Shown here: in pieces, positions 14,492 through 64,000 of the stretch | Numbering within the stretch: the first letter of the stretch is position 1 | Layout of the letters: each line of letters starts with the position of its first letter | NCBI GenBank assembly: GCA_900617105.1 | Contig: UYFQ01000001.1 | Span: forward strand, 3,720,001 to 3,784,000 | DNA: 64,000 nucleotides | Reading direction: 5' to 3' | Source: Hydrurus foetidus | Lineage: Eukaryota | Translations under genes and position numbers: made by a program | The notes under the pieces: model-generated | Database searches by the model: none | Told to the model about the DNA's origin: nothing | The model's input: only the letters and a program-made list of their open reading frames with translations

Positions 14492-14540
14492 GCTATTAAT
14501 ATAGGAGCTGCTCGCGCCCGTATTTATTGGCTAAACGGCA
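14492..14540 (+). repeat. GCTAT-N7-ATAGC palindromic repeat, intergenic
   Basis: GCTATTAATATAGGAGCTGCTCGCGCCCGTATTTATTGGCTAAACGGC between convergent pth and ffh. Confidence 0.85.
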
Positions 14541-14578
14541 CTTTATGAGTCTAAATAGAGGCTAAAAAGGTCGTTTTC

Positions 14579-24456: not shown

Positions 24457-25716
24457 ATGTTGACTTGGGACGAAGAAGTTAAACCATCATTGCAAAATTC
24501 TCTTGGCAGCGAGATATTTAATACTCGCCTGGAAGAACTGACTCCACTGGTTGCCGATGCGATGGTTGCATCGCCAGCCGCCGGCGTGCGCATGCTGCAT
24601 GACGGCCCGTTTTCACCAGCTGCAGTTGCTGCACTAATTATTTCAGCAGCTCCTTCACAGAGCACCGAAGCGCAAACCCAAGCGCCCGCTGCGGTGATGA
24701 AGCGCGTCAAGGCCTCAGACAAACGAATCATTAACGGACAGACTGACGTTAATCAGTTGGTGCCGTTCAAGTACAAGTGGGCGTGGGAAAAATATTTGGC
24801 TACTTGCGCTAACCACTGGATGCCGCAAGAAGTCAACATGACGCGCGACATTGCTTTGTGGAAAGACCCGAACGGTTTGACCGAAGACGAGCGGCGCCTG
24901 GTTAAGCGCAACCTCGGCTTTTTTGTTACTGCCGATTCATTGGCCGCCAACAACATCGTGCTGGGTACTTACAGGCACATCACAGCCCCAGAGTGCCGGC
25001 AGTTTTTGCTTCGTCAGGCTTTTGAAGAAGCTATTCATACCCATGCCTACCAGTACATCACTGAATCCCTGGGTTTGGACGAGGCTGAGATTTTCAATGC
25101 CTACAACGAAGTCCAATCCATTAAGGACAAAGATCAGTTTCTGATCCCGTTCATTGAAGTTATTTCAAATCCGCACTTCAAGACCGGCACCCACGAAGCT
25201 GACCAAACACTGCTCAAGTCATTGATTGTTTTTGCCTGCCTGATGGAAGGCCTGTTCTTCTACGTCGGCTTCACGCAAATTCTGGCGCTCGGCCGCCAAA
25301 ACAAAATGACTGGTGCAGCTGAACAGTACCAGTACATCTTGCGCGACGAGTCGATGCATTGCAACTTTGGCATTGACCTGATCAATCAGCTCAAGCTGGA
25401 AAATCCAGGACTCTGGACAGCTGAGTTCAAAGCTGAAATCAAAGCCTTGTTTATGAAGGCAGTGGAGCTGGAGTATCGCTACGCTGAAGACACCATGCCG
25501 CGCGGCGTGTTGGGCTTGAATGCGTCCATGTTCAAAGGCTACTTGCGTTACATCGCGAACCGCCGCGCTACCCAAATTGGCTTGGAAACTTTGTTCCCAA
25601 ATGAAGAAAATCCGTTTCCCTGGATGAGCGAAATGATTGACCTGAAAAAAGAGCGCAACTTTTTTGAAACCCGAGTGATTGAATATCAATCGGGTGGTGC
25701 TCTTTCTTGGGATTAA
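24457..25716 (+). CDS. nrdB: Class Ia ribonucleotide reductase beta subunit
   Basis: [15 protein letters not shown] (radical Tyr retained), EGLFFY, RDESMH, NFFETRV. Confidence 0.96.
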
Positions 25717-26421: not shown

Positions 26422-26444
26422 ATGAACGATGGCGCTGGTTCGGC

Positions 26445-26493
26445 GCTATAAAATTAAGAGCTTCTTGCGCCCGTATTTATTGGCGAAAAGCCC
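26445..26493 (+). repeat. GCTAT-N7-ATAGC palindromic repeat, intergenic
   Basis: GCTATAAAATTAAGAGCTTCTTGCGCCCGTATTTATTGGCG. Confidence 0.8.
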
Positions 26494-26508
26494 AAAAAAG
26501 CCCAAAAA

Positions 26509-29571: not shown

Positions 29572-30921
29572 TTAGCGAATGCGCTTGGACAGCCACTCTT
29601 CCAGGTAGTGAATGTTTGTGCCACCGTCGATAAATTTTGCGTCCACCATTAACTCGCGGTGCAGCGGAATATTGGTATTGATGCCCTCAACCACGGTCTC
29701 GGCCAGTGCAGTGCGCATGCGTGCCAACGCTTGCTCTCGCGTGTCGCCATGCACAATGATTTTGCCAATCATGGAGTCGTAGTTGGGCGGCACAAAGTAG
29801 TTGGCGTAAATATGTGAATCCACCCGCACGCCCGGCCCGCCTGGCGTGTGCCAAGTGGTGATGCGCCCCGGAGACGGCGTGAACTTGTACGCGTCTTCGG
29901 CGTTGATCCGGCATTCAATCGAATGGCCTTTAATCTCAATCTGCCGCTGGGTAAACGGCAGCTTTTCACCCGCTGCAACCATGATTTGCGTACGCACAAT
30001 ATCCACGCCGGTCACCCACTCAGTCACAGGATGCTCCACCTGCACCCGGGTGTTCATTTCAATGAAGTAAAACTCGCCGTTTTCGAATAAAAATTCAAAG
30101 GTACCCGCGCCCCGGTAGCCAATTTTTTTGACGGCTGCCACGCAGCGCTCACCAATTCGCTCAATCAGCTTGCGCGGAATTCCCGGCGCTGGCGCTTCTT
30201 CAATGACCTTTTGGTGGCGGCGCTGCATAGAGCAATCGCGCTCACCCAGCCATACGGCGTTTCGGTGCTGGTCGGCCATGATTTGAATTTCGATATGCCG
30301 CGGGTTCTGCAGGAACTTTTCCATGTAGACCTCCGGGTTGCCGAATGCCGCCGCTGCCTCAGCTTTAGTCGTTTGCACCGCGTGCAGCAGCGCCGCCTCG
30401 GTATGCACCACACGCATGCCTCGCCCGCCGCCGCCGCCTGCCGCCTTGATGATGACGGGGTAACCCACCTGCTTGGCGGTGCGTTTGATGAAGGCGGCGT
30501 CATCGGGCAGCGCGCCCTCTGAGCCCGGCACACAGGGCACGCCGGTTTTGATCATGGTTTGCTTGGCCGAAACCTTGTCACCCATGATTCGAATGGATTC
30601 GGGTGAGGGGCCAATAAACTTGAAGCCGCTTTTTTCAACCCGCTCCGCAAAGTCGGCGTTTTCGCTTAAAAAGCCGTAACCCGGGTGAATTGCCTCGGCG
30701 TCGGTCACTTCAGCAGCTGAAATAATCGCCGGCATGTTCAAGTAGCTGTCTTTAGAAGGCGCTGGCCCGATGCAAACCGATTCGTCGGCCAATCTGATGT
30801 ATTTCGCGTCGCGGTCAGCTTCAGAGTAAACCATGACGGCTTTGATGCCGAGCTCCCGGCAGGCGCGCTGAATGCGCAGAGCAATTTCACCGCGATTAGC
30901 GATCAGTATTTTTTTAAACAT
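29572..30921 (-). CDS. accC: Acetyl-CoA carboxylase biotin carboxylase
   Basis: [34 protein letters not shown]. Confidence 0.98.
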
Positions 30922-34328: not shown

Positions 34329-34377
34329 GCTATATATTCAATAGCTGCTTGCGCCCGTATTTATTCGGCTAGAAGCA
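34329..34377 (+). repeat. GCTAT-N7-ATAGC palindromic repeat, intergenic
   Basis: GCTATATATTCAATAGCTGCTTGCGCCCGTATTTATTCGGCTAGAAGC. Confidence 0.88.
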
Positions 34378-39596: not shown

Positions 39597-40235
39597 TTAC
39601 GAGTTGACCGTCAGTTTGCACCATTGTCCATAGGCGGGTGCAGCAATTGGCCATTGGTCAGCGCGGGTGATGCTGCGGGCGCCGCTGGCAATCAGGCTGG
39701 CGGCGCGAATCACGCCTGCGTGGGTGATCCACAGCGTGTCTCGACTCATGTCCAGCTCGTCAAACGCGGCGGCGACGCGGGCCATGAACTGCGTCACGCT
39801 TTCGCCGGTTTGCCCGGCTGGGTAGTTGGCAAAGTCATCGGTCCACGCGTCGAGCTCGGCTTTGGCAATGTCTGCCCAAGCGCGGCCTTCCCACTGCCCA
39901 AAGTTCATTTCTTGCAGTTTAGGGTCTGTTTTAGGGCTTAAATCAGGCCGTAGCCCAATTAATACGGGCGCGAGCAGCTCACATCTTTGTAGCGGTGAGG
40001 TGACGACGGTGACGCCGCCCGGCAGAATTTTGGCCAGTTGCGCCGCGCAGGCTTGCGTGGCTTCGGCGTCGGCGGGCATGTCGAGCTGGCCGTAGCAAAT
40101 TCCGGGCTCGATCAGTGGCTGCGCATGCCTGACCAACCACAAAAATTTTGCCCCCACGCTTCTCACTTCGTGTGTACGCTGCCCCCCGAGGGGGCTAGCC
40201 TTGCTAGGGGCGGCCCGTCGCTGCGGCGGCGTCAT
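39597..40235 (-). CDS. cobC: Histidine phosphatase family protein (CobC-like alpha-ribazole phosphatase)
   Basis: LVRHA, SPLQRC, EMNFGQWEG, GES, THAGVIR; ATGA-coupled to cobS. Confidence 0.82.
   Translation of the reverse strand: MTPPQRRAAPSKASPLGGQRTHEVRSVGAKFLWLVRHAQPLIEPGICYGQLDMPADAEATQACAAQLAKILPGGVTVVTSPLQRCELLAPVLIGLRPDLSPKTDPKLQEMNFGQWEGRAWADIAKAELDAWTDDFANYPAGQTGESVTQFMARVAAAFDELDMSRDTLWITHAGVIRAASLIASGARSITRADQWPIAAPAYGQWCKLTVNS
39946..39993 (-). repeat. GCTAT-N7-ATAGC family repeat inside cobC
   Basis: TAGCCCAATTAATACGGGCGCGAGCAGCT matches the groES-groEL intergenic copy at 27 of 29 positions. Confidence 0.85.
40150..40231. repeat. CCCCCCGAGGGGGC-type palindromic element forming the CobC N-terminal extension
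   Basis: GCTGCCCCCCGAGGGGGCTAGCCTTGCTAGGGGCGGCCC with nested hairpins; single copy in the window, family recognised from recall. Confidence 0.6.
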
Positions 40236-49335: not shown

Positions 49336-49384
49336 GCTATTAATATAATAGCTGCTCGCGCCCGTAATAATTGCGCCTAAGGCT
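49336..49384 (+). repeat. GCTAT-N7-ATAGC palindromic repeat, intergenic
   Basis: GCTATTAATATAATAGCTGCTCGCGCCCGTAATAATTGCGCCTAAGGC. Confidence 0.88.
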
Positions 49385-50562: not shown

Positions 50563-52035
50563 TCAACACTCTTCAGTCCAGCAGTAACCATCACGCGCAA
50601 TCATCGCGCTGCTGGCGCTCGGCCCCCAAGTCCCCGCCGCATACGGCCGTGGCCCCGTCGATTCAGCCGCCCAGCTCTGCATGATCGGCTCAACCCAGCG
50701 CCAGGCTTCTTCTTGCTCGTCGCTGCGCACAAACAGATTCAGGCGCCCGTCGATGACGTCGAGCAGCAATCGCTCGTAAGCGCCCACTCGCTCGGAGCCG
50801 AAGCGTTTGTCAAAGTCCAGGTCAAGCTGAACTGGCGACAGCACCGAATCACTGGTTTGCGCGGCGAGTCGATTTTGCTGACCCTGCGCGAGCAAATGCA
50901 GCTCCAGCCCGTCTTTGGGTTGCAGGTGAATCACGAGCCGGTTGGCAGCACCAACTGGCGACTTGTAAATAGCGTGCGGCGCAGGCCTGAAGTTCACTTC
51001 AATGTACGCACTGCGCCCAGCCAGGCGCTTGCCGGTGCGAATGTAAAACGGCACGCCCGCCCATCGCCAGTTGGCAATCTCGCAGCGCAGCGCAACGAAC
51101 GTTTCGGTGGCGCTTTGCGCCGGTACGCCTTTTTCCTGGGTGTAGGCCACCGCAGGCGCGCCTTCAATCGTGCCCGCCGCGTACTGCCCGCGCACCACGT
51201 GTTGCCGCAGGGTTTCTGGTGTCCACGGCTTCAAAGACCGCAACACCTTGAGCTTTTCGTCGCGTATGGCGTCTGCATGCGCGTTAATCGGCGGCTCCAT
51301 CGCCACGGCGCACAGCAGTTGCAGTGCGTGGTTTTGCACCATGTCGCGCAGCGCGCCCGTACTGTCGTAAAACGCGCCGCGTTTTTCAATGCCCAGGTCT
51401 TCAGCAATCGTGATCTGAATATTGGCGATGTCCTCGCGCCGCCAGAGCGGCTCAAACAACGCGTTGCCAAAACGCAGCGCAAACAGGTTTTGCACCGACG
51501 GCTTGCCCAGGTAGTGGTCAATTCTGAAAATCTGCTTTTCTTCAAACACCTTGCGCACGGCGCTATTGATGGCGCGGTTTGATTCAAGGTCATGGCCCAG
51601 CGGCTTTTCAAGCACCACGCGCACGTTGGGCTGGTTAAGCCCAGCAGCCGCAATGTTTTCGCAAAATACAGTGAATAACCCCGGGGCCGTGGCCAGGTAC
51701 ATCACCACGGTGTCGGCTGCGCGGGTTTTTAGCGTGGCCGACAAGGCTGCGTAGTCGCTGGCGTTAGACAAGTCCATTCGCAAGTACGTCAGCAATGCCG
51801 CAAAGCGTGCAAATTCGTCGTCGCTGGGGCGCTTCGCCAGCTCCACATCGTCAAAGCGCGACTTGATGAGCGCGCGGTAGGCGTCTTCAGTCAAATCGTC
51901 TCGCGCCACGCCCACAATGCGGCCGCCCGCGGGCAGCGATCCGTGCCTGAATGCCTGGAACAGCGCGGGCAAAAGCTTGCGCCACACCAAATCGCCTGTG
52001 CCACCGAACAAAATGAGGTCAAATCCCATGGTCAT
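50563..52035 (-). CDS. zwf: Glucose-6-phosphate dehydrogenase
   Basis: FGGTGDL, EKPLG, RIDHYLGK, RDMVQNH, RWAGVPFY.RTGK. Confidence 0.97.
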   Translation of the reverse strand: MTMGFDLILFGGTGDLVWRKLLPALFQAFRHGSLPAGGRIVGVARDDLTEDAYRALIKSRFDDVELAKRPSDDEFARFAALLTYLRMDLSNASDYAALSATLKTRAADTVVMYLATAPGLFTVFCENIAAAGLNQPNVRVVLEKPLGHDLESNRAINSAVRKVFEEKQIFRIDHYLGKPSVQNLFALRFGNALFEPLWRREDIANIQITIAEDLGIEKRGAFYDSTGALRDMVQNHALQLLCAVAMEPPINAHADAIRDEKLKVLRSLKPWTPETLRQHVVRGQYAAGTIEGAPAVAYTQEKGVPAQSATETFVALRCEIANWRWAGVPFYIRTGKRLAGRSAYIEVNFRPAPHAIYKSPVGAANRLVIHLQPKDGLELHLLAQGQQNRLAAQTSDSVLSPVQLDLDFDKRFGSERVGAYERLLLDVIDGRLNLFVRSDEQEEAWRWVEPIMQSWAAESTGPRPYAAGTWGPSASSAMIARDGYCWTEEC

Positions 52036-52077
52036 TGCTTGCCGTCGTGTTGAGTTGTGTTGAGTTGTGCAAAGGTA

Positions 52078-52092
52078 TGTAATTTAGTTTCA
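52078..52092. promoter_or_regulatory. Candidate HexR operator
   Basis: TGTAATTTAGTTTCA resembles TGTAAT-N3-ATTACA, between divergent zwf-hexR and tal-pgi. Confidence 0.55.
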
Positions 52093-52139
52093 CAGTATAT
52101 TGGCATAATGGTAACTCGCAAAATCCGGATGCATCAGCC

Positions 52140-53087
52140 ATGAACCAACTCGACGCCCTCAAACAATTCACCACCGTGGTTGCCGATACGGGCGACTTCA
52201 AGCAGCTTGCGCAGTTCAAACCGCAAGACGCCACCACCAATCCGTCGTTGATTTTGAAGGCCGTACAAAAGCCCGATTACCAGCCGCTGATGGCGGGTGT
52301 GGTGGGTAAATTCAAGGGCCGCCCGCTTGATGAAGTAATGGACCGCCTGCTGGTGCGCTTTGGCTGCGAGATTTTGGCCACTATTCCAGGGCGCGTGTCC
52401 ACCGAGATTGATGCGCGCTTGAGCTTTGACACCAACGCGACGTTGACACGCGGCGAACGCATCATCGAGCTGTACCAAGCCGAGGGAATCCACATCGACC
52501 GCGTGCTGATCAAGGTCGCGGCGACGTGGGAAGGCATTCAAGCCGCAGAAAAGCTGGAGCAGCGCGGCATACACACCAACCTCACGCTGCTGTTTGCGTT
52601 TTGCCAGGCGGTGGCGTGCGGGCAAGCCAAGGTGCAATTGATATCGCCCTTTGTAGGCCGCATTTACGACTGGCACAAAAAAGCCTGCGGCGCGGCGTGG
52701 GTAGAAGCAGACAACGTCGGCGCTAATGACCCCGGCGTGGAGTCGGTGCGCGACATTTACCGGCATTTCAAACACTTCGGTATTGCTACCGAAATCATGG
52801 GCGCCAGCTTTCGCAATGTTGGTCAAATTACCGCGCTGGCGGGCTGTGATTTACTGACCATCAGCCCTGAGCTCTTGGGCCAACTGGCAGCAGCCGATGC
52901 GCCTTTGTCGCAAGCGCTGGATGCTGACGCCGCCAAAGCACTTAAATTGCCTGCCATTAATTTCGATGAAGCAGGCTTCAGGTTTGCACTTAACCAGGAC
53001 GCAATGGCCACTGAAAAGCTGGCCGAGGGCATTCGAGGTTTCGTGACCGATGCTGTTCTGCTTGAGCAACTGATGCAGGCGTTGTGA
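52140..53087 (+). CDS. tal: Transaldolase
   Basis: [38 protein letters not shown]. Confidence 0.97.
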
Positions 53088-54664
53088 TGCGCACCCGCTG
53101 CGACAAAACGCCTGACTGGGCTTTGCTAAAAAGCGCGTTTGAAAAAACCGGTAAATCGTTTGACTTAAACGCCGCTTTTGCAGCTGACTCTCAGCGCTTC
53201 AGTAAATTCAGCCAAGACGCGCCGCATGTCTTTGCAGACTTGTCTAAAAACCTGATCGACGCCGCAACCGAATCTTTGTTGTTTGACCTGGCTCGCCAAT
53301 GCGGTGTGGAGCAACACAGAAATGCCATGTTTGCGGGCCAGGCCATCAACAGCACTGAAAACCGTGCCGTAATGCATTTTTTACTAAGAAATACGCCTGC
53401 AGCCCAATATATACAGGCGCAAACAGCTATTAATAAAATAGCAGATAAGCAAGCTGAAGTCGAAGCAACGCTTAACGCCATGCTGGCCTTCGCAGACAAA
53501 ATCCGTGCTGACAGCCGCATCACTGACGTAATCAATATCGGCATTGGCGGCTCAGACTTGGGCCCGCAAATGGCGGTGCTGGCGCTTAATGAGTTTGCCG
53601 ACACAACCGGGTCAGTTACCAGGCGTTTTCACTTTGTGTCGAATGTTGACGGGCAAGAGCTGGCTGATGTACTGGCGCAATGCAAGCCGCACAGCACGCT
53701 GTTTTTAATTGCGTCCAAAACCTTCACCACCACTGAAACCATGACCAACGCGCAATCAGCGCGAGACTGGTTTGCCAGCAATGGCGGCAAAAACGTAGCC
53801 GAGCATTTTGCGGCACTCACCACCAACGTGGCCGCAGCCAATGCGTTTGGCATTGCCAGCACTTTTGGTTTTTGGGACTGGGTGGGTGGGCGTTATTCGC
53901 TGTGGTCGGCGATTGGTTTGCCGATTGCCATTGCGATTGGCAGCGCGGGCTTTCGTGATTTTTTGGCCGGCGCGCACGCGATGGACGAGCACTTTCAACA
54001 CGCGCCGCTTGAGCAAAACCTGCCCGTGCGATTGGCATTGCTAGACATTTGGTACCGCAATTTTCACCACTTCAGCAGCCGCAGCATTGCCCCGTACAGC
54101 AGCGCGCTGCGCCGCTTGCCCGCGTACTTGCAGCAGCTGGAAATGGAAAGCAATGGCAAGCGGGTGGATGTGGAAGGCAACGCATTGCCCTATGACACCG
54201 CGCCCGTGCTGTGGGGCGAGCCCGGCACCAACGGCCAGCATGCGTATTTTCAAATGCTGCACCAGGGCACGGCGGTTGTGCCGGTCGAATTTATTGCGGT
54301 CAAAAATGCCGGGCATTCTTTACCCGGCCACCACAGCAAACTGCTCGCCAACGCACTTGCACAGGCGCAAGCACTGATGGTGGGCAAGGCAGACAGCGGT
54401 GGCCACAAGCACTTTCCGGGCAACCGGCCCAGCACGTTTTTGCTGCTCGACAGGCTCACCCCCGCCAGCCTGGGCGCGCTGCTGGCGCTGCAAGAGCACC
54501 GCGTGTTTGTCAGCGGCAGCATCTGGGGCATCAACAGCTTTGACCAGTGGGGCGTAGAGCTGGGTAAGGTGCTGGCGCAAGATATTGAGCATCGCTTGCA
54601 GAGTGGGGATTTGGCTGGGCTGGATGCTTCTACGGCTGGTTTGCTGGCCCGCCTGCGCAAGTAA
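53084..54664 (+). CDS. pgi: Glucose-6-phosphate isomerase
   Basis: [48 protein letters not shown]. Confidence 0.97.
53395..53442 (-). repeat. GCTAT-N7-ATAGC family repeat inside pgi
   Basis: GCCTGCAGCCCAATATATACAGGCGCAAACAGCTATTAATAAAATAGC, closely similar to the 61666-61713 copy. Confidence 0.88.
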
Positions 54665-54816
54665 GCGGGTGGGTTAGAACAAAAAGCCGCCTGAAGCCCG
54701 AGCCTGTCGCGGATGCATCATTTCACTCGGACTTACCCTGTCCCGTTGTCGCCCAGTAATGGCTACGATGTGTTGTGGAAAAAAGTACGGTCGTTCTATT
54801 ATTCAAAGGATTCATC

Positions 54817-56034
54817 ATGAGACAACAGAAAAAAGTTCTTTTAACGCTGGCGTTCACTGCTTTGCTGGCCAGTTGCGGTGGCGGTGGTGGTGGCGACGCC
54901 CCCCCGTCAACGCCTTTTAAGTTCAGCCAAATGATCACCTTCGGCGACAGCTTGAGTGACGTGGGGACTTACAAAGTGGGAGCGATTGCTGCCTCGAAGG
55001 GCGGGCAATTTACCGTTAATTCACCTACCGCAAAAAACTGGACTGAAGTACTCGCAGCCAAGTATGGTTTGCCAGCGCCTTGCGCGGCGCAAACGGGGTT
55101 TAATTCATTGATTCCCGGTTTTGATGGAGAAGCAACCAAAAACATCACCACGTGTCGCAACTATGCGCAAGGCAGCGCACGTGTAACCAACGTGTTTGGC
55201 CCCAACAGCAAAGCGATTCAGGATGTTGCCCCTTCAGCCGCGCCGCTGGGATTCACTGCACTTCCAGTATTCAACCAAATCAACAACCACCTCGCTGCTG
55301 CAGGAGGTGTTTTCAGCCCTACGGAATTAGTTGTCGTGCTGGCAGGCGGAAATGACGTGTTTTTGAACCTTGGAGCCGTAGGAAGCCTCGGTACAACTGG
55401 CTTTGTGGGCGCAGCCAGTTTTGCTGGATGGAGCGCAGCCCAGCTCGCTGCCGTGAAAGAAGCTACAACGCCGGCCGATGCAGGTTTAGCAGCCCAAACG
55501 GCAGCACTGCAAGGCATGACCAAGGCCGGCACAGAACTGGCCACGTACATCAAAACGCTGATCGTGGCTAAAGGCGCGAAGTTCGTGGCTGTCGTCAACT
55601 TGCCAGACGTGGGTCAAACCCCATTAGCCGCCAGTTTGGGCACGACAACGGCCGCCTTGTTAACTGCGCTCTCCACCACCTTCAACTCGGCTGTAGCGGC
55701 TGGGCTGGCAGGTGTACCCGAGGTGACCATCGTTGATGCGCTGACCCAAGGTCGCGCTCAAGTGGCCAACCCTGCAGCATTTGGTTTGACGAACGCAACA
55801 TCGCCAGCTTGCGCCGTCGGACCAGCTCTTGTCTCCGGCAACCCATTAGGCAGCGCGACGGGCGGACCGTCGATCACCTGCACCACCGCAAGCACATTGG
55901 GCATGGTAACCCCGCCGGCCGTTGACGTCAGCCGCTACAACTTCTCAGACGATGTGCACCTGACCCCATACGGCAACGTATTGTTGGCTGATTTTGTGTA
56001 TGGCCGCTTGTCTGCAGCGGGCTTCCCGAAATAA
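54817..56034 (+). CDS. SGNH/GDSL esterase lipoprotein
   Basis: Lipobox LASC; FGDSLSD, NYAQG, GGND, DDVHLT. Confidence 0.9.
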   Translation: MRQQKKVLLTLAFTALLASCGGGGGGDAPPSTPFKFSQMITFGDSLSDVGTYKVGAIAASKGGQFTVNSPTAKNWTEVLAAKYGLPAPCAAQTGFNSLIPGFDGEATKNITTCRNYAQGSARVTNVFGPNSKAIQDVAPSAAPLGFTALPVFNQINNHLAAAGGVFSPTELVVVLAGGNDVFLNLGAVGSLGTTGFVGAASFAGWSAAQLAAVKEATTPADAGLAAQTAALQGMTKAGTELATYIKTLIVAKGAKFVAVVNLPDVGQTPLAASLGTTTAALLTALSTTFNSAVAAGLAGVPEVTIVDALTQGRAQVANPAAFGLTNATSPACAVGPALVSGNPLGSATGGPSITCTTASTLGMVTPPAVDVSRYNFSDDVHLTPYGNVLLADFVYGRLSAAGFPK

Positions 56035-56084
56035 CAGCGCAACGCGAATCGGCTGGCGGTTGTTAACGCAACCGGCTCAGACGC

Positions 56085-56123
56085 AAAAAAGGCAGCAACA
56101 AAAGTTGGCTGCCTTTTTTTTTT
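56085..56123. terminator. Bidirectional terminator at the left edge of the accessory array
   Basis: AAAAAAGGCAGC..GCTGCCTTTTTTTTTT. Confidence 0.8.
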
Positions 56124-56133
56124 CGAATTGCGA

Positions 56134-56351
56134 GCCGCGCTGCCCGGCCCTGACTCGGCTGTGTTTTTTTGGCCGTCAACGACGTTGCCAGAGCTCGCGG
56201 TGTGAGTCAGCTAGCTAAAACCATCCAGCCAGGCCGCGAGAGTTGGTACAAAGCGCTAAGCGCTGGTGCCAAGCCAATGTATGACACGATGATCAGTGCG
56301 ATTAATGCTTTGGGTGTTCAGCAACAGGTGGTGCAGGTAAGTGCGCCTTGA
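56134..56351 (+). pseudogene. 5'-truncated, frameshifted copy of the addiction-module antidote
   Basis: Aligns with 58753-58971 (DVARARG.SQLAK..Q.GRES.YKALSAGAKP.YDTMI..INALGVQ); no N-terminus; 1-nt loss in a T run. Confidence 0.88.
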
Positions 56352-56367
56352 ATGCAGTGTCTAATTT

Positions 56368-56574
56368 TTATGGCTTGCCCGCCGTGAGGCCAGTCTTGTT
56401 ACCGGGTGGCCTGTAGAACTTAAATCCGAGTGCCAGGGCATTAGCTGTTGCAGCCTCGGAATATGCATGCAAATCACCGTGGTATTTGTCATTCAGTTGC
56501 TGCCTGACTGAATGTATTTCAGCAATGATGGGATCACGCCAATTGGCTGACGGGGGTGGTTGAAGTGTTTGCAT
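56368..56574 (-). CDS. Small putative antitoxin downstream of the PIN pseudogene
   Basis: ATG 2 nt after the PIN stop; WRDPIIAEIH..R......Y..DL.A motif recalled from partners of this PIN family. Confidence 0.68.
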   Translation of the reverse strand: MQTLQPPPSANWRDPIIAEIHSVRQQLNDKYHGDLHAYSEAATANALALGFKFYRPPGNKTGLTAGKP

Positions 56575-56576
56575 GT

Positions 56577-57057
56577 TTAGCTCTCCAGCATTTCTAGCGG
56601 TGAAACCAGCTCGGGTAGTCTGTAGCCTTTGGCCGCGCAAAGTCCCCGCATGGTGGGCAACTGGACCGGGTTCGCGATGTGTTTAAAGTTCCAAGTCAGC
56701 AAGATATTGACTGAATGAAAAGCTGCACAAGCGATATGAAGCGCATACAGCCGTGCCTTTTGCGGAAGACCGCCCTAACAACAAGTAGTCGGCGATAGCT
56801 TCAATGTCGGCATTTATTTCTAACACTGGTAAAGCACGCACTGCATCAATGCGCTCTTTGGCGGCGTTTGCATCTCCGCCTTGTATTTCTTGAATCACGA
56901 AGGGTGAAATACAAGCCGTTACCGAGTCAAGCTTGGTTGTCCACCATTGTTGCGTGACTGCTTGCCATGAATTTCTAATCTGGTCGCTTGATGGCCTAGC
57001 TGTCAGATAGCTAACCACCGAGGATTCAATATAGACAAGCGGTTTCTTGGCGTCAGT
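56577..57057 (-). pseudogene. PIN-domain (VapC-like) toxin pseudogene
   Basis: KPLVYIESSVVSYLTARPS directly preceded by TAA (no start codon); frameshift near 56773, then LYALHIACAAFHSVNILLTWNFKHIAN...ELVSPLEMLES*. Confidence 0.85.
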
Positions 57058-57080
57058 TTAGTTTGAATTGTTAGCCTGCT

Positions 57081-57282
57081 CAAAAAAAGCCGCAAGGTTT
57101 GCACCGTGCGGGGTTCACTTGAGGACTCAGACGCTCGGTCTGAAACCTCAAAGCTGCACTACCTGCAACCTTAGGCGTATTACATATCCATGCCGCCCAC
57201 ACCACCCATGCCGTTCATGCCACCACCCATGCCGCCGCTTGGGGCGTCGTCTTTGGGTGCTTCTGCAATCATGGCTCGCCGT
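57081..57282 (-). repeat. Displaced groEL 3' end, distal copy (last ~31 codons plus 3' hairpin and terminator)
   Basis: 57180-57276 encodes [31 protein letters not shown]; 57081-57150 matches the groEL terminator and hairpin. Confidence 0.93.
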
Positions 57283-57322
57283 GTTTACCGCTGTCGTATT
57301 CAGTAACGCCAGTGGCGGCACA

Positions 57323-57712
57323 TCAAAAGGCTTGCGCTGTGTAGCCTGATTCTGTTGTGCCCAACTTGAGCAGCACGGCATCGTTGGTAATGACGGTGGC
57401 ATCGTGCAGTGCTGCGCTAGCCATCACAATGGCATCAGGCAGTTTGACAGCACGGGTTTTTCTTAACTCCGCTACTTGCTCCATCAATGCGGTGTTGCTG
57501 TAGTTCGAGTCAACAACCGTGATCCGGCTTAACAGGTCTGTGAATATGAGGCGATCTGGCTCAGTGAGACCACCGAAACCTAGGAACTCCAGCACATGGA
57601 TGACAGAAACCCCAAGCCAACCGGCATCTTTGATCAGAGCAATTAGAGCTTCGTGGCCTTCCAGCAATGCCACCAAGGCATTGGTGTCCAGCAGATAGCG
57701 TTCACCACGCGT
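57323..57712 (-). CDS. PIN-domain VapC toxin (start codon uncertain)
   Basis: RYLLDTNAL, SVI...E.L, KLPDAIVMASA, VITND. Confidence 0.85.
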   Translation of the reverse strand, partial: TRGERYLLDTNALVALLEGHEALIALIKDAGWLGVSVIHVLEFLGFGGLTEPDRLIFTDLLSRITVVDSNYSNTALMEQVAELRKTRAVKLPDAIVMASAALHDATVITNDAVLLKLGTTESGYTAQAF

Positions 57713-57920
57713 CGCGCTGCGCACGTTGTGCAGCCACTGCATCGCCACGCCACGCCAGGCGGCCCACCAGGTCCGAAAAATCGTAGCGCACGGGCTCAGC
57801 AGCGGGCTGCGGCGTATTTTCTATAACAACCAAAACAGGCTGTCGCTTGAGATTTTTCGGCGGCTCGTCTATCCAGATGAGCTGTGAGCCGCTGATTTCT
57901 GCGCTGTAGCTTTTAAGCAT
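57702..57920 (-). CDS. Putative VapB-like antitoxin
   Basis: GGAG RBS; MLKSYSAEI.G..L.W.D..P; ends DAVAAQRAQRDAW* overlapping the PIN gene. Confidence 0.8.
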   Translation of the reverse strand: MLKSYSAEISGSQLIWIDEPPKNLKRQPVLVVIENTPQPAAEPVRYDFSDLVGRLAWRGDAVAAQRAQRDAW

Positions 57921-57994
57921 GGGTCACTCCGAGTTTGAATGTGCGAGCGGTTTAGTACGTAACGTTGAATCAAATTTTTATTCTAGATGATGCA

Positions 57995-58266
57995 GTAAAA
58001 AACCCCGCAAGGTTTTCACCGTGCAGGGTTCGCTTGAGGACTCAGACGCTCGGTCTGAAATCTCATGGGTGCATTACATATCCATACCGCCCATACCACC
58101 CATACCGCCCATACCGCCACCACCCATGCCGCCGCCTGGAGCGTCGTCTTTTGGTGCTTCTGCAATCATGGCTTGTAGTGGTCAACATCAAGCTGGCAAC
58201 AGACGCTGCGTTTTGCAGTGCGGTGCGGGTCACTTTGGTTGGGTCCAGAATGCCCATTTCAATCAT
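57995..58266 (-). repeat. Displaced groEL 3' end, proximal copy (last ~64 codons plus 3' hairpin and terminator), frameshifted
   Basis: 58074-58266 is near-identical to 59954-60145 ([29 protein letters not shown]...); 57995-58065 matches the terminator and hairpin. Confidence 0.96.
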
Positions 58267-58309
58267 CTACAACCTGATGTTTATCGTATTACTTCGGATA
58301 CAATAAATT

Positions 58310-58618
58310 ATGAATGCATTTCACCGCACATCAGTTTTTGATGAGTGGTTGAGCCTGCTGAAAGACAAAACAGGCAAAGCGTTGATACTGAAGCGCATCC
58401 GCTCAGCTGAAGCGGGAAACCTCGGCGACTGTCGGCCTGTCGGTCAAGGCGTGAGTGAAATGCGTGTGCATTACGGGCCGGGCTACCGCGCCTACTTCAC
58501 GCGAACTGGCGGCGTGGTGTACGTGCTGCTTTGCGGTGGTGACAAAAGCAGCCAACAAAGCGATATTGCCCAAGCCATTGAAATAGCCAAATTGTTAAAG
58601 CAAAGGAAGCCGAAATGA
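58310..58618 (+). CDS. Addiction-module killer protein (HI1419-type, RelE/HigB-like)
   Basis: F..WL..LKD, RI.....GNLGD..PVG.GVSEMRVHYGPGYR.YF, LLCGGDKSSQ..DI. Confidence 0.92.
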   Translation: MNAFHRTSVFDEWLSLLKDKTGKALILKRIRSAEAGNLGDCRPVGQGVSEMRVHYGPGYRAYFTRTGGVVYVLLCGGDKSSQQSDIAQAIEIAKLLKQRKPK

Positions 58619-58971
58619 AAACCAAATCAGCCGCGCTAAAAGCCTTGGCCAGCACCAAAGCCAAAGTCAGCAAAGCCATCAAAATCGAAACAGCACCCTT
58701 TGATGCTGCCGACTACCTGGACGACAACGAAACCATTGCCGCCTACCTGACTGCTGCACTGACAGACCCTGACCCTGATGTGTTTTTGGTTGCAGTGAAA
58801 GACGTTGCCAGAGCCCGCGGCATGAGCCAGTTGGCCAAAGACACCCAGCTAGGCCGCGAGAGTTTGTACAAGGCGTTGAGCGCCGGTGCCAAGCCGCGTT
58901 ATGACACGATGATCAAAGTGATCAATGCCCTGGGTGTGCAGTTGCAGGTCGTGCCTGTGGTTGCGGCTTGA
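58615..58971 (+). CDS. Addiction-module antidote (HI1420-type HTH)
   Basis: FDAADYL...E.IAAYL, DVARARGMSQLA..T.LGRESLYKALS...PR..T..KV. Confidence 0.92.
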   Translation: MKTKSAALKALASTKAKVSKAIKIETAPFDAADYLDDNETIAAYLTAALTDPDPDVFLVAVKDVARARGMSQLAKDTQLGRESLYKALSAGAKPRYDTMIKVINALGVQLQVVPVVAA

Positions 58972-59857
58972 TGTTGAATTGGAACCAAGTTTCATTTCGA
59001 TTTCCCACTTCGCTGGCTTCAGTTCTAGTTTCAAACTGGCCCGATCGCTTCAATACTTGTCGCCAAGTCTTGCAACGATATTTAGACGGTGTTTGTTCTA
59101 CATGTTGTTTACCAATCCACGCGATCGCTGTATTTAGTAGAGTCCAGCCGTTTAATCCGCAGGCTGCTTCAGCTTCGCGCAACACCTGCACGATAGCGCT
59201 TGACGACCAATCTACTGTGCCATTCGGATTGATTCCGTCAAAAAGATCTTGCACAACCTGGCTTTGCATGAAGTAGGCGGACAGCGCCCTGGTGTTCAGC
59301 ATGCTTGCCGACCACTCACTGAGTTGCGTGAAGTTTGATTCAAAGGTGGTTTGACAAGTACCAAGGTAAGTTAACGCCACGGAACATCCCTCTTCTGTTT
59401 TAAGGCTAAATCTGTCAAGAAAGTGGTGCACCATGTCGTTGCGTGTTACCCGCATTTCTTCAAGCTCCTTACTTGTGATCTCGAGCTTTTCAGGAGTCAT
59501 CACAATTTGATGGCGAGACTTGAAGTAGGGCTGACCTGTTGCAATTACAAGGCTCTCTAAATCCGAATCTGCGCCATGCTCATCGAAATCGTGGGTGACG
59601 TTAACAACCAAGTCTTTCAGGAGATGGTCTTTGATGAGTACGCCAAGAGGCTTGTCATGCAAATGGTTGGCTCTTTCAACTCCATTGCTTTCGATGGTTT
59701 CAGCGCTACCCTCGATATTTGCAATTGCCAGCAGATTCTTCAATAAATGCTCGTATTGCTGAATTTGAAGCAGACAAGCGCCAAGCGTGCACTGCACTTC
59801 GCGTTGCATTTCCGCAAGTAAGTTAAGTGGAGATGAGCGTACGGCGGTTTTCAACAT
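58922..59857 (-). CDS. HEPN-like / OST-HTH (LOTUS) domain protein
   Basis: RNDMVH (Rx4H) in a helical N-terminal region; C-terminal GWTLL..A..WI......TP.KY.C.TW..VL.....FE resembles OST-HTH; visibly more AT-rich than groEL. Confidence 0.68.
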   Translation of the reverse strand: MLKTAVRSSPLNLLAEMQREVQCTLGACLLQIQQYEHLLKNLLAIANIEGSAETIESNGVERANHLHDKPLGVLIKDHLLKDLVVNVTHDFDEHGADSDLESLVIATGQPYFKSRHQIVMTPEKLEITSKELEEMRVTRNDMVHHFLDRFSLKTEEGCSVALTYLGTCQTTFESNFTQLSEWSASMLNTRALSAYFMQSQVVQDLFDGINPNGTVDWSSSAIVQVLREAEAACGLNGWTLLNTAIAWIGKQHVEQTPSKYRCKTWRQVLKRSGQFETRTEASEVGNRNETWFQFNIKPQPQARPATAHPGH

Positions 59858-59874
59858 GGCATTGATTAAAGCGT

Positions 59875-59908
59875 AAAAAACCCCGCAAGGTTTACACCGT
59901 GCGGGGTT
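59875..59908 (-). terminator. groESL terminator
   Basis: Minus strand AACCCCGCACGGT-GTAA-ACCTTGCGGGGTTTTTT. Confidence 0.85.
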
Positions 59909-59953
59909 CGTTTTGAGTACTCAGGCATCGCTGCCTGAAAGCTCAAGCGGTCA

Positions 59954-61615
<1,662 letters not shown>

Positions 61616-61665
61616 CTAAAAAGGGTTAAAAAGCTTGAAAAAGGCTAAAAATAGGTATTAAAAGT

Positions 61666-61713
61666 GCCTGCAGCCCAATAAATACGGGCGCGAGCAGCTA
61701 TTAAATAAATAGT
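61666..61713 (-). repeat. GCTAT-N7-ATAGC palindromic repeat between groES and groEL
   Basis: GCCTGCAGCCCAATAAATACGGGCGCGAGCAGCTATTAAATAAATAGT. Confidence 0.88.
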
Positions 61714-61730
61714 GACTTGAGGTGAAGAGA

Positions 61731-62021
61731 TTACTTCTCGACAACAGCAAACAAGTCTTCTTCTTTCATGACCAGCAACTCGTCGCCGTCAACTTTGACA
61801 GTCTGGCCGCTGTATTTGCCGAACAAAACGCGGTCGCCAACTTTGACGCCAACAGGCTGAACTTCGCCTTTGTCGTTCTTTTTGCCAGGGCCAACAGCCA
61901 GAATTTCGCCTTGATCAGGCTTTTCAGCAGCGCTGTCAGGAATGACGATGCCAGAGGCGGTTTTGGTTTCGTTTTCGACGCGTTTGACAATTACGCGGTC
62001 GTGCAAGGGGCGAAGTTTCAT
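61731..62021 (-). CDS. groS: Co-chaperonin GroES
   Basis: [34 protein letters not shown]. Confidence 0.98.
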
Positions 62022-62112
62022 GGTTTCTCCAGTTGTAAAAAGGGTTGTATCAATCAAAAAGCGCCAGCAACAGGGTGCTGAACTTAACGATCTGTCGGGC
62101 TGGGGTGCAGTG

Positions 62113-62139
62113 TTAGCACTCAAACCCGTAGAGTGCTAA
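62113..62139. promoter_or_regulatory. CIRCE element (HrcA operator)
   Basis: Perfect TTAGCACTC-N9-GAGTGCTAA upstream of groES. Confidence 0.97.
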
Positions 62140-62140
62140 T

Positions 62141-62168
62141 AATAGGGGCAAACCATGTCAATTTCAAG
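62141..62168 (-). promoter_or_regulatory. Sigma32-type promoter of groESL
   Basis: Minus strand CTTGAAA-N13-CCCCTATT immediately upstream of CIRCE. Confidence 0.8.
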
Positions 62169-62282
62169 TCTGGGCACCGAAATCGGCCGCAATGATGCGG
62201 AATCATGGCTTTTCCGAATACCCAAGCCATCGCGGGTAGATTAAAAACAGAGCTTGCCTTTTTTACACCCACAGGATTTTGA

Positions 62283-63275
62283 ATGCACTTCGACCCTAGC
62301 CACAAGCTTTCTCGCCGCCAAGCGCTTACCGTCACCGCTAGCGCTGCCTTGCTGGCCGCCCCGTGGACGCGCGCGCAAAGCTTTCCAGAGCGCCAGCTCA
62401 GCATCGTCGTGCCCGCGCCACCGGGCGGCACGGCAGACATTTCAGCCCGCGCTATTTCTGACCCGCTGGCCAAAGCACTCGGGCAGCCTGTAGCGGTCGA
62501 CAACCGCGGCGGTGGCAATGGCGCAGTTGGCGCGCAGGCAGTGCTGGCAGCCCGGCCAGACGGGCACACGCTGCTGATGGCGTACTCGGGATTTCATTGC
62601 ATGAGCCCGCATTTGGTCAAGCTGCCGTATGACCCGCTAAAAGACTTGCAGGCCATTGCCAATGTGTACTCAGCCCCGCAAGTGATGGTGGTGCGGTCTA
62701 ACTTAGGCATTAAAACCGCGCAAGAATTGATTGCCTACGCCAAGAAGAACCCTGGCAAATTGAACTACGGCAGCTCGGGCAACGGCAGTGTGCAGCACAT
62801 CGCTACAGAGCTGTTCAAGCAACTCTCGGGCACTTTTATGACGCATATTCCGTACCGCGGATCTGGCCCCACGATTTCTGATTTGCTGGCCAGCCAAATT
62901 GACCTGACGGTAACGACCGCGCCCTCGCTGATGCCGCATATTCAAAGCGGCCGCTTCATACCGCTGGTGGTGGCCGGCCCGCGCCGCCTGGCCAGCTTGC
63001 CTAACGTGCCGACTGGCGCAGAAATTGGCTTGAAAGGCTATGAGGTGGATGCGTGGTTCGCGTTGTACACCCACGCGCAAGCGCCCAAAGCTGCGGTTGA
63101 CCGCGTTGCCAGCGAGGTGCAAAAAATCATGGCTGTGCCCGCCTTTAAAGAGCGCGCCAACAGCCTGGGCGCTGAAGCCAACTTTATGGGCCCGCGTGAC
63201 ATGATGGCCTACGCGCAGGCTGAATACGACAAGTGGGGCAAGGTCATCAAAACCGCCAATATCAAGGCGGATTGA
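62283..63275 (+). CDS. Bug-family tripartite tricarboxylate transporter substrate-binding protein
   Basis: Tat-like SRRQAL leader, VP.PPGG.AD..AR, NYGSSGNGS..H, HIPYRGSG. Confidence 0.93.
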   Translation: MHFDPSHKLSRRQALTVTASAALLAAPWTRAQSFPERQLSIVVPAPPGGTADISARAISDPLAKALGQPVAVDNRGGGNGAVGAQAVLAARPDGHTLLMAYSGFHCMSPHLVKLPYDPLKDLQAIANVYSAPQVMVVRSNLGIKTAQELIAYAKKNPGKLNYGSSGNGSVQHIATELFKQLSGTFMTHIPYRGSGPTISDLLASQIDLTVTTAPSLMPHIQSGRFIPLVVAGPRRLASLPNVPTGAEIGLKGYEVDAWFALYTHAQAPKAAVDRVASEVQKIMAVPAFKERANSLGAEANFMGPRDMMAYAQAEYDKWGKVIKTANIKAD

Positions 63276-63307
63276 TCAAAAAAGGCCTGAAACAGGAGTC
63301 TAAACAA

Positions 63308-63354
63308 GCTGTAGCCCAATTTATACGGGCGCGAGCAGCTATATAATAAATAGC
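63308..63354 (-). repeat. GCTAT-N7-ATAGC palindromic repeat, intergenic
   Basis: GCTGTAGCCCAATTTATACGGGCGCGAGCAGCTATATAATAAATAGC. Confidence 0.88.
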
Positions 63355-63452
63355 ATACTGCCGTGCCTGCAAATGCGCCCATCGCCTACACGCTGCCCTC
63401 AACGCCCAGTCAATAATTCGGTTTTGTTTTTATTGACCTCAGGAGAAAACCC

Positions 63453-63854
63453 ATGATGCAGTACGCTGGCCTTTACCTGGCCGTGTTTTTAACGATGTTT
63501 GTTATTGATGCCGTCTGGCTTGGCGTCATTGCCAAGTCGACTTATGCCAACGCGATGGGCGGCCTGCTAAGCCCCAACCCGAACTTGTGGGCTGCTGCTG
63601 CTTTTTATTTGCTGTTTCCGGTAGGGCTGGTGATATTTGCCGTGTTGCCGCAGGCCGACAGCCCGGTGTGGAAGGCAGCTTTGATGGGCGCGCTGTTCGG
63701 TTTTTTTGCTTATTCAACCTATGACTTGACCAACTTGGCCGTTGTTAAAGACTGGCCGCTGGGCTTGACGTTCATTGACATGGCGTGGGGCACGCTGGTC
63801 AGCGGCATTGCGGCAACGGCGGGCAAGCTGGCGCTGAATTATTTGAATAAGTAA
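63453..63854 (+). CDS. DUF2177-family membrane protein
   Basis: ID.VWLG, GALFG..AY.TYDLTNLA...DWP.....IDMAWG. Confidence 0.85.
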   Translation: MMQYAGLYLAVFLTMFVIDAVWLGVIAKSTYANAMGGLLSPNPNLWAAAAFYLLFPVGLVIFAVLPQADSPVWKAALMGALFGFFAYSTYDLTNLAVVKDWPLGLTFIDMAWGTLVSGIAATAGKLALNYLNK

Positions 63855-63881
63855 GGCGCTGCGGTTAGCAACAACCCACGC

Positions 63882-63916
63882 AAAAAATCCGGCAGCCCCC
63901 AAAGGTGCTGCCGGAT
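63882..63916 (-). terminator. Terminator hairpin for a transcript entering from the right edge
   Basis: AAAAAATCCGGCAGC..GCTGCCGGAT. Confidence 0.65.
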
Positions 63917-64000
63917 GATTGAATGTTGAGCCGCCTGCTGATCAAGTCCTCAAGTCCTCAAGCCCTCAGGCGCCCAAGTCTGCAGAGCCTTCACAACGCC

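Follow-up and report, generated by a model that had tools for sequence, protein, structure and literature searches.

In this work we analyzed the region downstream of a bacterial groEL gene in a stretch of 64,000 nucleotides (hereafter the window) deposited as Hydrurus foetidus DNA (GenBank assembly GCA_900617105.1, contig UYFQ01000001.1, positions 3,720,001 to 3,784,000 of the forward strand); the records that carry this type of locus are assigned to Polaromonas sp. or Comamonadaceae. Between groEL and a GDSL lipase gene that is followed by the conserved pgi-tal-zwf block, the window carries three blocks of cargo genes separated by two displaced copies of the groEL 3' end. We consider it likely that the groEL-pgi interval is a variable gene-gain site devoid of integrases, into which blocks carrying their own groEL end entered by homologous recombination, leaving the old end behind as a dead tail. 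The array is most likely an example of what has been called insertion with long target duplication, and gives no sign of a new enzyme or class of element. A previous sequence-only reading of the window had proposed an integron-like accretion site and an undescribed system. The first term does not fit an array without attC-like sites, with variable tail boundaries and, in the relative G085, with cargo other than toxin-antitoxin (TA) or defence genes; the second is not supported either, as inserts bordered by long repeats of the end of a gene, variable in length and free of mobile elements, are already known (PMC2853133).

The groEL 3' end, together with a hairpin placed after the stop codon and a terminator, occurs three times in direct orientation, as the sequence-only reading had stated; BLASTN, folding and a terminator profile agree on this. 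When the native groEL end was compared with the window by BLASTN, copy 1 (57995-58266) matches the native end with 90.9% identity over 274 nt (E 8e-105) and copy 2 (57082-57276) with 79.4% over 199 nt (E 3e-41). The hairpin and the terminator are kept in all three ends (folding z-scores of -6.1, -5.0 and -3.0), and a terminator profile built from relatives recognizes, in the whole 64 kb, these three ends only. No duplicated ends of genes other than groEL were found in the 64-kb self-comparison. The untranslated regions (UTRs) of the two displaced copies are 88% alike, and copy 2 starts at the position at which copy 1 carries its frameshift (near 58175). A search against Rfam gave a single chance-level match, and a consensus scan for promoters and terminators did no better than chance and failed to find the groEL terminators. 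The block next to groEL (block 1, 1606 bp) includes the gene for a 311-aa protein and a convergent toxin-antidote pair of the HI1419/HI1420 type; block 2 (712 bp) includes a small open reading frame (ORF) and a PIN gene, and in block 3 (955 bp) a small ORF accompanies a PIN-like gene and an antidote gene, the former broken and the latter truncated (Table 1).

The suspicion that such repeats result from misassembly was ruled out, given that the copies are 9-21% diverged, the depth is even and the junctions are found in contigs of another study. Contigs assembled separately from run X1, which is possibly the source sample, cover 56050-57662, 57694-58134, 58145-58228 and 58218-59991 with no differing letters and a depth of 1096-1158, and the stretch missing from these contigs, 57663-57693, is covered by run X3 of that study. 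In run X6, from a different study, the junction between copy 1 and the toxin gene is crossed (58225-58387, 5 differences), as is the junction between the native tail and the cargo (58943-59981, 8 differences). No single listed contig extends across the whole array. Joins between tail copies that appear in metagenome contigs have short sides and were obtained at a threshold of 85%; these were not counted as evidence of excision.

Comparison with related genomes fits the gain or loss of a block and a groEL tail as a unit. In G121 the order is groEL, block 2, copy 2, block 3 and GDSL gene, so that block 1 together with one tail makes up the whole difference in layout from the window; its functional groEL occupies the place of copy 1 and has a UTR that matches that of copy 1, and an orthologous copy 2 is present. 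The two sequences are 95-98% identical over 56200-58266, with only 69-84% identity in the flanking GDSL gene. Similarly, the insert of G085, a 5.6-kb two-component/redox gene cluster, has an empty counterpart in G080, and these two pairs provide an empty site with a single repeat copy. In G126 and G122 the terminator alone is displaced, and both have their counterpart in G120. In G137 the genes of block 3 stand directly behind groEL and are followed by a displaced tail, and its pair partner is contig C195 of G094; an exact empty site for blocks 2 and 3 was not found among the relatives. The native UTR type of the window also precedes the OST-HTH gene in G001 and G116. These pairs bear out the expectation that the cargo differs between relatives, a sister genome (G121) being devoid of the proximal block. 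The claim that the newest cassette is the proximal one stands in part: G121 fits a proximal block that moves as a unit with a groEL tail, and it is plausible from these alignments that this cassette is the newest, the difference being explained by a gain in the window or by a loss in G121.

The comparison of the same lineages outside the array gave other possible signs of exchange. G121 and the window are 96% identical at the nrdB end and 86% at the accC end (window 25500-25716 and 29572-29790), which suggests that patchy exchange may have occurred between these lineages. When G001 (L041, L068) was compared with positions 51400-64000, identity was 99-100% at accC and in the stretch right of groES, and fell to 65-94% from zwf to the GDSL gene; this pattern reflects either a long interspecies recombination tract that starts in groEL or a misbinned contig.

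The boundaries and the composition of the tails are also informative. The coding part kept in seven displaced tails measures 100, 166, 173, 192, 197, 277 and 302 bp, which suggests that the crossover had no fixed position. In G269, which belongs to another genus, the 3' part of the displaced tail is identical to the genome's own groEL at 232 of 233 positions and the 5' part at only 61 of 80, other lineages reaching up to 72 of 80 in this 5' part; the functional groEL of G269, compared with a genome of the same genus, shows a drop of identity over that 5' region. A foreign groEL patch and a later homogenization are, in consequence, both likely. The frameshift motif of copy 1 is restricted to dead copies, in the window, in G001 and in G121, which lie next to three different cargo genes; it is missing from the 66 functional groEL ends (of 69) that could be parsed. 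The groEL tail itself is nearer to that of the window than the nrdB tail in all 21 close relatives (mean identity of 93% vs 85%).

The absence of integrases, transposases and attC-like sites noted in the sequence-only reading was sustained by the searches made here. None of the 45 long ORFs of the window, nor the ORFs of the array, listed an integrase or transposase among its best five families, and neither integrase, transposase nor resolvase families were among the best five of 176 ORFs located behind groEL in relatives (175 scanned out of 192 predicted, plus one added by hand). A simple scan for core motifs and hairpins, with patterns representing attC and dif, detected neither attC-like sites (0) nor dif-like sites (0) within the array, although divergent attC sites could escape a scan of this kind; the same scan gave 0-2 attC-like sites in each of 13 control windows. 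An island with its own integrase at the groEL site was not found either among the relatives examined, including the 58 intervals closed by pgi. The integron integrase gene intI was absent beside the array in the window scan and in the intervals of the relatives, whose IntI matches lie on other contigs.

The groEL tail was matched in 161 of the 204 genomes of the genus of G001; this tally and those for the nrdB tail, the accC tail and the integron integrase include the unpublished genome G032, and the remaining claims are independent of it. In 15 genomes the tail had multiple matches, and in 5 of them (5/161) an orphan displaced tail was recognized, located on the groEL contig in G001, G121, G137 and G085, and on another contig in G119. 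The other 10 were set aside after inspection: G072, G076, G094, G099 and G216 have second groEL genes, full-length or probable; the second matches of G080, G086 and G093 are chance matches to Gly-Gly-Met repeats; that of G133 is a fragment at a contig end; and in G095 two groEL 3' halves lie back to back in inverted orientation (L161:9335-10027), probably an assembly artefact. As a control, 1 of 178 genomes gave a second match to the nrdB tail, compared with orphan groEL tails in 5 of 161; the accC tail was uninformative, with second matches, presumably from paralogues, in many genomes.

For a detailed view of the interval, 67 stretches downstream of groEL from 66 genomes of the genus were fetched, plus one metagenome contig; since they were chosen by similarity or for having multiple matches, they are not a random sample. 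In 58 of the 68 stretches pgi marks the end of the interval, whose size is 0.1-6.3 kb. TA-like genes and candidates for a role in defence are concentrated in the close relatives (BrnT/BrnA, HI1419/HI1420 and DUF433 pairs, PIN genes and an OLD-type ATPase), and the remaining genomes have transport or metabolic genes, or nothing, behind groEL. The terminator profile found 18 extra groEL-type terminators in 111 kb of intervals, after the removal of 5 clipped native ones, vs 3 weak ones in 512 kb of flanks; 8 of the 18 score better in the orientation of groEL and 10 in reverse, and the profile was built from 50 of these same loci. In a broader sample of the family the tail was matched in 345 of 401 genomes, with 2 candidates scored per genome. 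Twenty of these had two matches and 19 were set aside, G591 after fetching its sequence and 18 from coordinates and identity alone; the one left is G269, in which groEL is followed by a gene for an 849-aa TIR/TPR protein, a displaced tail of 334 bp and a toxin-antidote pair, the insert being of 2.8 kb. A metagenome scan with the GroEL C-terminus, made on 1 of 64 parts, returned mostly distant groEL loci and one close contig, and was uninformative.

We propose that the array was formed in three steps. DNA from a related cell, made of a groEL end, its UTR, the terminator and cargo, would pair with the highly conserved groEL 3' end of the recipient. The far end would be joined at an arbitrary point, 100-300 bp upstream of the stop codon, giving rise to a displaced tail, or alternatively just downstream of the stop codon, in which case the terminator alone would be displaced, as in G126. 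In the next step the old tails could serve as second homology arms, and a block might be excised, swapped or re-inserted by RecA because both tails that flank it are homologous to the groEL gene of any relative; reuse of a tail would explain why one frameshift is common to dead tails that lie beside three different cargo genes. Finally, TA modules would be likely to build up between the direct repeats, since post-segregational killing would counter the loss of the DNA enclosed by them; stabilization by TA systems has been reviewed (PMC2654758). The sequence-only reading had left the choice between homologous recombination and a recombinase acting in trans; homologous recombination is the better supported of the two, with no attC- or dif-like site and with variable boundaries counting against the latter.

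A bolder version of this proposal, which we hold only tentatively and regard as doubtful, is that dead groEL tails serve as homology arms that are inherited and can be used again, and that TA/defence blocks excised by RecA circulate among Comamonadaceae, land at groEL and are held there by addiction modules. Tail reuse of this kind predicts the shared frameshift, the block of 95-98% identity between flanks of 69-84%, and the sharp mosaic of G269. If true, there would be an enzyme-free traffic of cassettes with groEL, by virtue of its conservation, as a docking site across species, beyond one-off scars.

Several known systems resemble this locus. Insertion with long target duplication is reportedly the subject of Nobusato et al. 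(2000), a work cited in PMC2654758. Furuta, Abe and Kobayashi (2010, PMC2853133) describe inserts of less than 20 kb with long, variable target duplications and no other mobile element, in which the repeats often span the stop codon and the target gene stays intact; their beta-proteobacterial cases include Acidovorax. The present locus shares the features given there for this class: direct repeats longer than 30 bp and of variable length (coding part of 100-302 bp plus UTR in the seven tails), inserts under 20 kb (the three blocks and those of G085 and G269), no mobility gene in the insert, the exception being a pair of the insertion sequence (IS) type near the tail of G119, and an empty site in a related genome. 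The cases presented in that paper are single inserts of restriction-modification genes, whereas here the cargo is of TA, putative defence or metabolic type, the inserts are stacked and a marked dead tail is probably reused. The array had no match to families of restriction (R) or modification (M) genes. The target also differs, as groEL has 0 mentions in the main text of PMC2853133. We found no description of displaced groEL tails with TA cargo in the open-access literature, PMC2884548 and PMC10270631 having nothing that bears on it, and the further targets in the supplement of PMC2853133 could include groEL.

According to Oliveira et al. (2017, PMC5635113), integrases are encoded in less than half of the hotspots of gene gain, and the core genes flanking hotspots recombine more; as here, high turnover takes place between two conserved genes without mobility proteins, with recombination in the flanking core gene. 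The model set out there consists of double crossovers in both flanks, which should leave no duplicated gene ends, in contrast to the duplicated groEL end seen here. Kirchberger et al. (2017, PMC5361080) proposed homology-facilitated illegitimate recombination for displacement arrays: in the effector-immunity arrays of the Vibrio type VI secretion system and in rhs C-terminal displacement, as described by them, a new module also arrives by a conserved anchor, the old one remains downstream, and no integrase is involved. The illegitimate step followed by ordinary homologous exchange that they propose is similar to our proposal; it would combine a RecA-dependent anchor with microhomology at the far junction. 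In those arrays the displaced part is a variable toxin tip or an immunity gene of the system itself, whereas here a housekeeping gene with an unaltered protein serves as the anchor, and the cargo is unrelated to it. Many gene-gain hotspots have no integrases, and there has been little testing of how the first foreign block enters. With its natural pairs, a frameshift marker and short blocks within the reach of PCR, this locus lends itself to tests of long target duplication and of stabilization by TA modules.

Among the other origins considered, it is unlikely that the blocks are decayed site-specific elements stacked at a groEL attachment (att) site that lost their integrases by deletion, in the manner of cis-mobilizable elements (CIMEs). 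Tandem accretion of integrative and conjugative or mobilizable elements (ICEs, IMEs) with decay to integrase-less CIMEs is described in PMC5704250, and shares with the array the stacking at a gene 3' end and the restoration of the gene; a groEL 3' end is the att site of staphylococcal phage-inducible chromosomal islands (PICIs; PMC8125051), and the start of copy 2 at the frameshift position of copy 1, in the window and in G121, would suit a fixed site. As presented in these sources, however, CIME accretion requires a site-specific integrase and a short fixed att, and the PICI that targets groEL has an integrase and an 18-bp att at the last codons; none of these was found here. The PICI overlap is restricted to those last 18 bp vs tails of 100-302 bp with seven starts, the mosaic tracts switch inside the repeat and not at one core, and in the 58 pgi-closed intervals of 0.1-6.3 kb there is no element with an integrase.

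Two further accounts are much less probable. A local tandem duplication of the groEL end and the DNA downstream of it in a single lineage, with the cargo later replaced or decayed and no entry of tail DNA, would explain why an antidote gene (77% identical) closes block 1 as well as block 3, why PIN genes are present in blocks 2 and 3, and the likeness of the UTRs of copies 1 and 2. We regard it as very improbable: the PIN proteins of the two blocks show only a distant likeness, other genomes have each type of UTR behind a functional groEL together with the same cargo, the cargo of G085 and G269 has no paralogue in the interval, and pairwise results suggest a different donor lineage for the UTR and cargo of each block. 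The least probable account is that the groEL tail or its hairpins are cassette sites, recognized in trans by an integron integrase or by a recombinase of the Xer type. In its favour, the UTRs show strong structure, and an integron integrase scored above the cut-off in 49 of the 204 genomes of the genus and in 3 of the 5 tail-bearing genomes tested. None was found, however, in G085, which has a displaced tail and is 100% complete, or in G001 (81% complete), and one is present in G120, which has the empty site; the genes lie on other contigs, and the array has neither fixed boundaries nor, by the simple scan, attC- or dif-like sites.

Some observations weigh against entry of the blocks by homologous recombination. 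The frequency of integron integrases in the genus and in tail-bearing genomes is one of them, and the IS-type transposase pair at less than 1 kb from the displaced tail of G119 is another. Two pairs of tail boundaries are only 5-7 bp apart (192/197 and 166/173) and copy 2 starts at the frameshift site itself, so preferred sites are possible; the variable starts could also result from the erosion of a longer, fixed att remnant. G121 may represent the state before insertion or that after excision, and no circle or excision junction was seen in the data, which are contigs that drop rare forms. An adjacent displaced tail is present in only 1 of the 20 two-match genomes of the family (G269). The control for gene specificity is thin, with one informative gene and at most 3 candidates scored per genome, accC being uninformative. 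Most genomes are fragmented assemblies, and the array contig of G001 may be misbinned.

Regarding the cargo, 58310-58971 encodes a predicted type II TA system of the HI1419/HI1420 type, as its adjacent genes score above the curated cut-offs, and the killer/antidote pair read from the letters is thus upheld. Of the VapBC-like pair proposed for block 2, the PIN protein stands; the label VapB rests on position, because the 72-aa partner has no family match. The decayed PIN module with an antidote fragment was recognized correctly, the PIN gene being broken with respect to the 157-aa allele of G121.

Table 1. Features of the groEL-GDSL region; positions are those of the window.
Feature	Positions	Strand	Support or remark
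groEL, intact, 550 aa, bacterial anchor gene	59954..61606	-	self match 100%
Functional 3' end of groEL, with the hairpin after the stop codon and the terminator	59873..60145	-	
311-aa cargo gene, helical N-terminal domain and weak C-terminal OST-HTH, 47.5% GC	58922..59857	-	
HI1420-type antidote (antitoxin)	58615..58971	+	TIGR02684, 112 bits vs cut-off 53.7
HI1419-type RelE/ParE-family toxin	58310..58618	+	TIGR02683, 125 bits vs cut-off 62.85
Displaced groEL tail copy 1: 192 bp coding, UTR and terminator	57995..58266	-	+1 frameshift near 58175
72-aa putative antitoxin	57702..57920	-	by position; no family match
PIN-domain (VapC-like) gene	57323..57748	-	PF01850, E 1.3e-11
Displaced groEL tail copy 2: ~100 bp coding, UTR and terminator	57081..57282	-	more decayed than copy 1
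Broken PIN-like gene, without start codon, frameshifted	56577..57048	-	G121 and G137 have intact alleles of 157 aa
Small partner ORF of the PIN-like gene	56368..56640	-	follows the PIN-like gene in G121 and G137 too; no family match
5'-truncated second antidote gene	56134..56351	+	3' piece, 77% identical to 58753-58971
GDSL lipase gene with its own terminator, distal flank, then conserved pgi-tal-zwf block	54775..56124	+	

The 311-aa protein had been read as HEPN-like/OST-HTH, and this assignment holds in part. Its match to OST-HTH is weak and was found in 11 of 16 homologues, and a motif R-N-x-x-V-H-H is invariant, R139, N140, H144 and H145 being present in the 16 aligned sequences. HEPN RNases have a conserved R-x4-6-H motif, and we take the RNxxVHH of this protein to be HEPN-like. 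The structural model has a predicted local distance difference test (pLDDT) value of 70, and fold searches gave no specific match, only generic helical bundles; the atlas leads, MtlR and DUF4145, both score below 0.9. PADLOC, run on eight ORFs of the array, gave only weak matches (E 0.005-0.006) for 2 of them and none for the 311-aa protein, so its role in defence is a guess from context. Its four closest matches in genomes are all located directly behind groEL, and among 80 loci one other has groEL nearby; at one of these four loci the toxin-antidote pair is also the same, with no displaced tail.

The slot behind groEL gathers candidate defence genes: HEPN-like/OST-HTH, OLD-type ATPase-TOPRIM, TIR-TPR, and unannotated proteins of 455 aa. 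The OLD-type ATPase-TOPRIM genes of G122 (L150:727-2544) and G119 (L213:1930-2748) lie in the groEL slot or beside a displaced tail, and that of G119 is interrupted by the IS-type transposase pair. The 849-aa TIR and TPR gene of G269 (L216:8377-10926), a candidate defence gene located between groEL and the displaced tail, had no PADLOC match. In three close relatives an ORF of 454-455 aa stands directly behind groEL (L042:773-2137, L044:816-2183 and L045:451-1818) and is followed by TA-like pairs; these ORFs had no Pfam match, and two of them had no PADLOC match either. The terminator of a convergent gene with the metallo-beta-lactamase fold (L044:3290-3330, similar in L152 and L069) resembles the groEL terminator in reverse. 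Finally, a dispersed intergenic repeat of 40-75 nt, which by its appearance is similar to repetitive extragenic palindromes (REP-like), is present at least 8 times in the window (53367-53441, 61638-61712, 63279-63353, 34330-34370, 14493-14544, 39941-39979, 49336-49376 and 26444-26498) and at about 40 scored places in G001.

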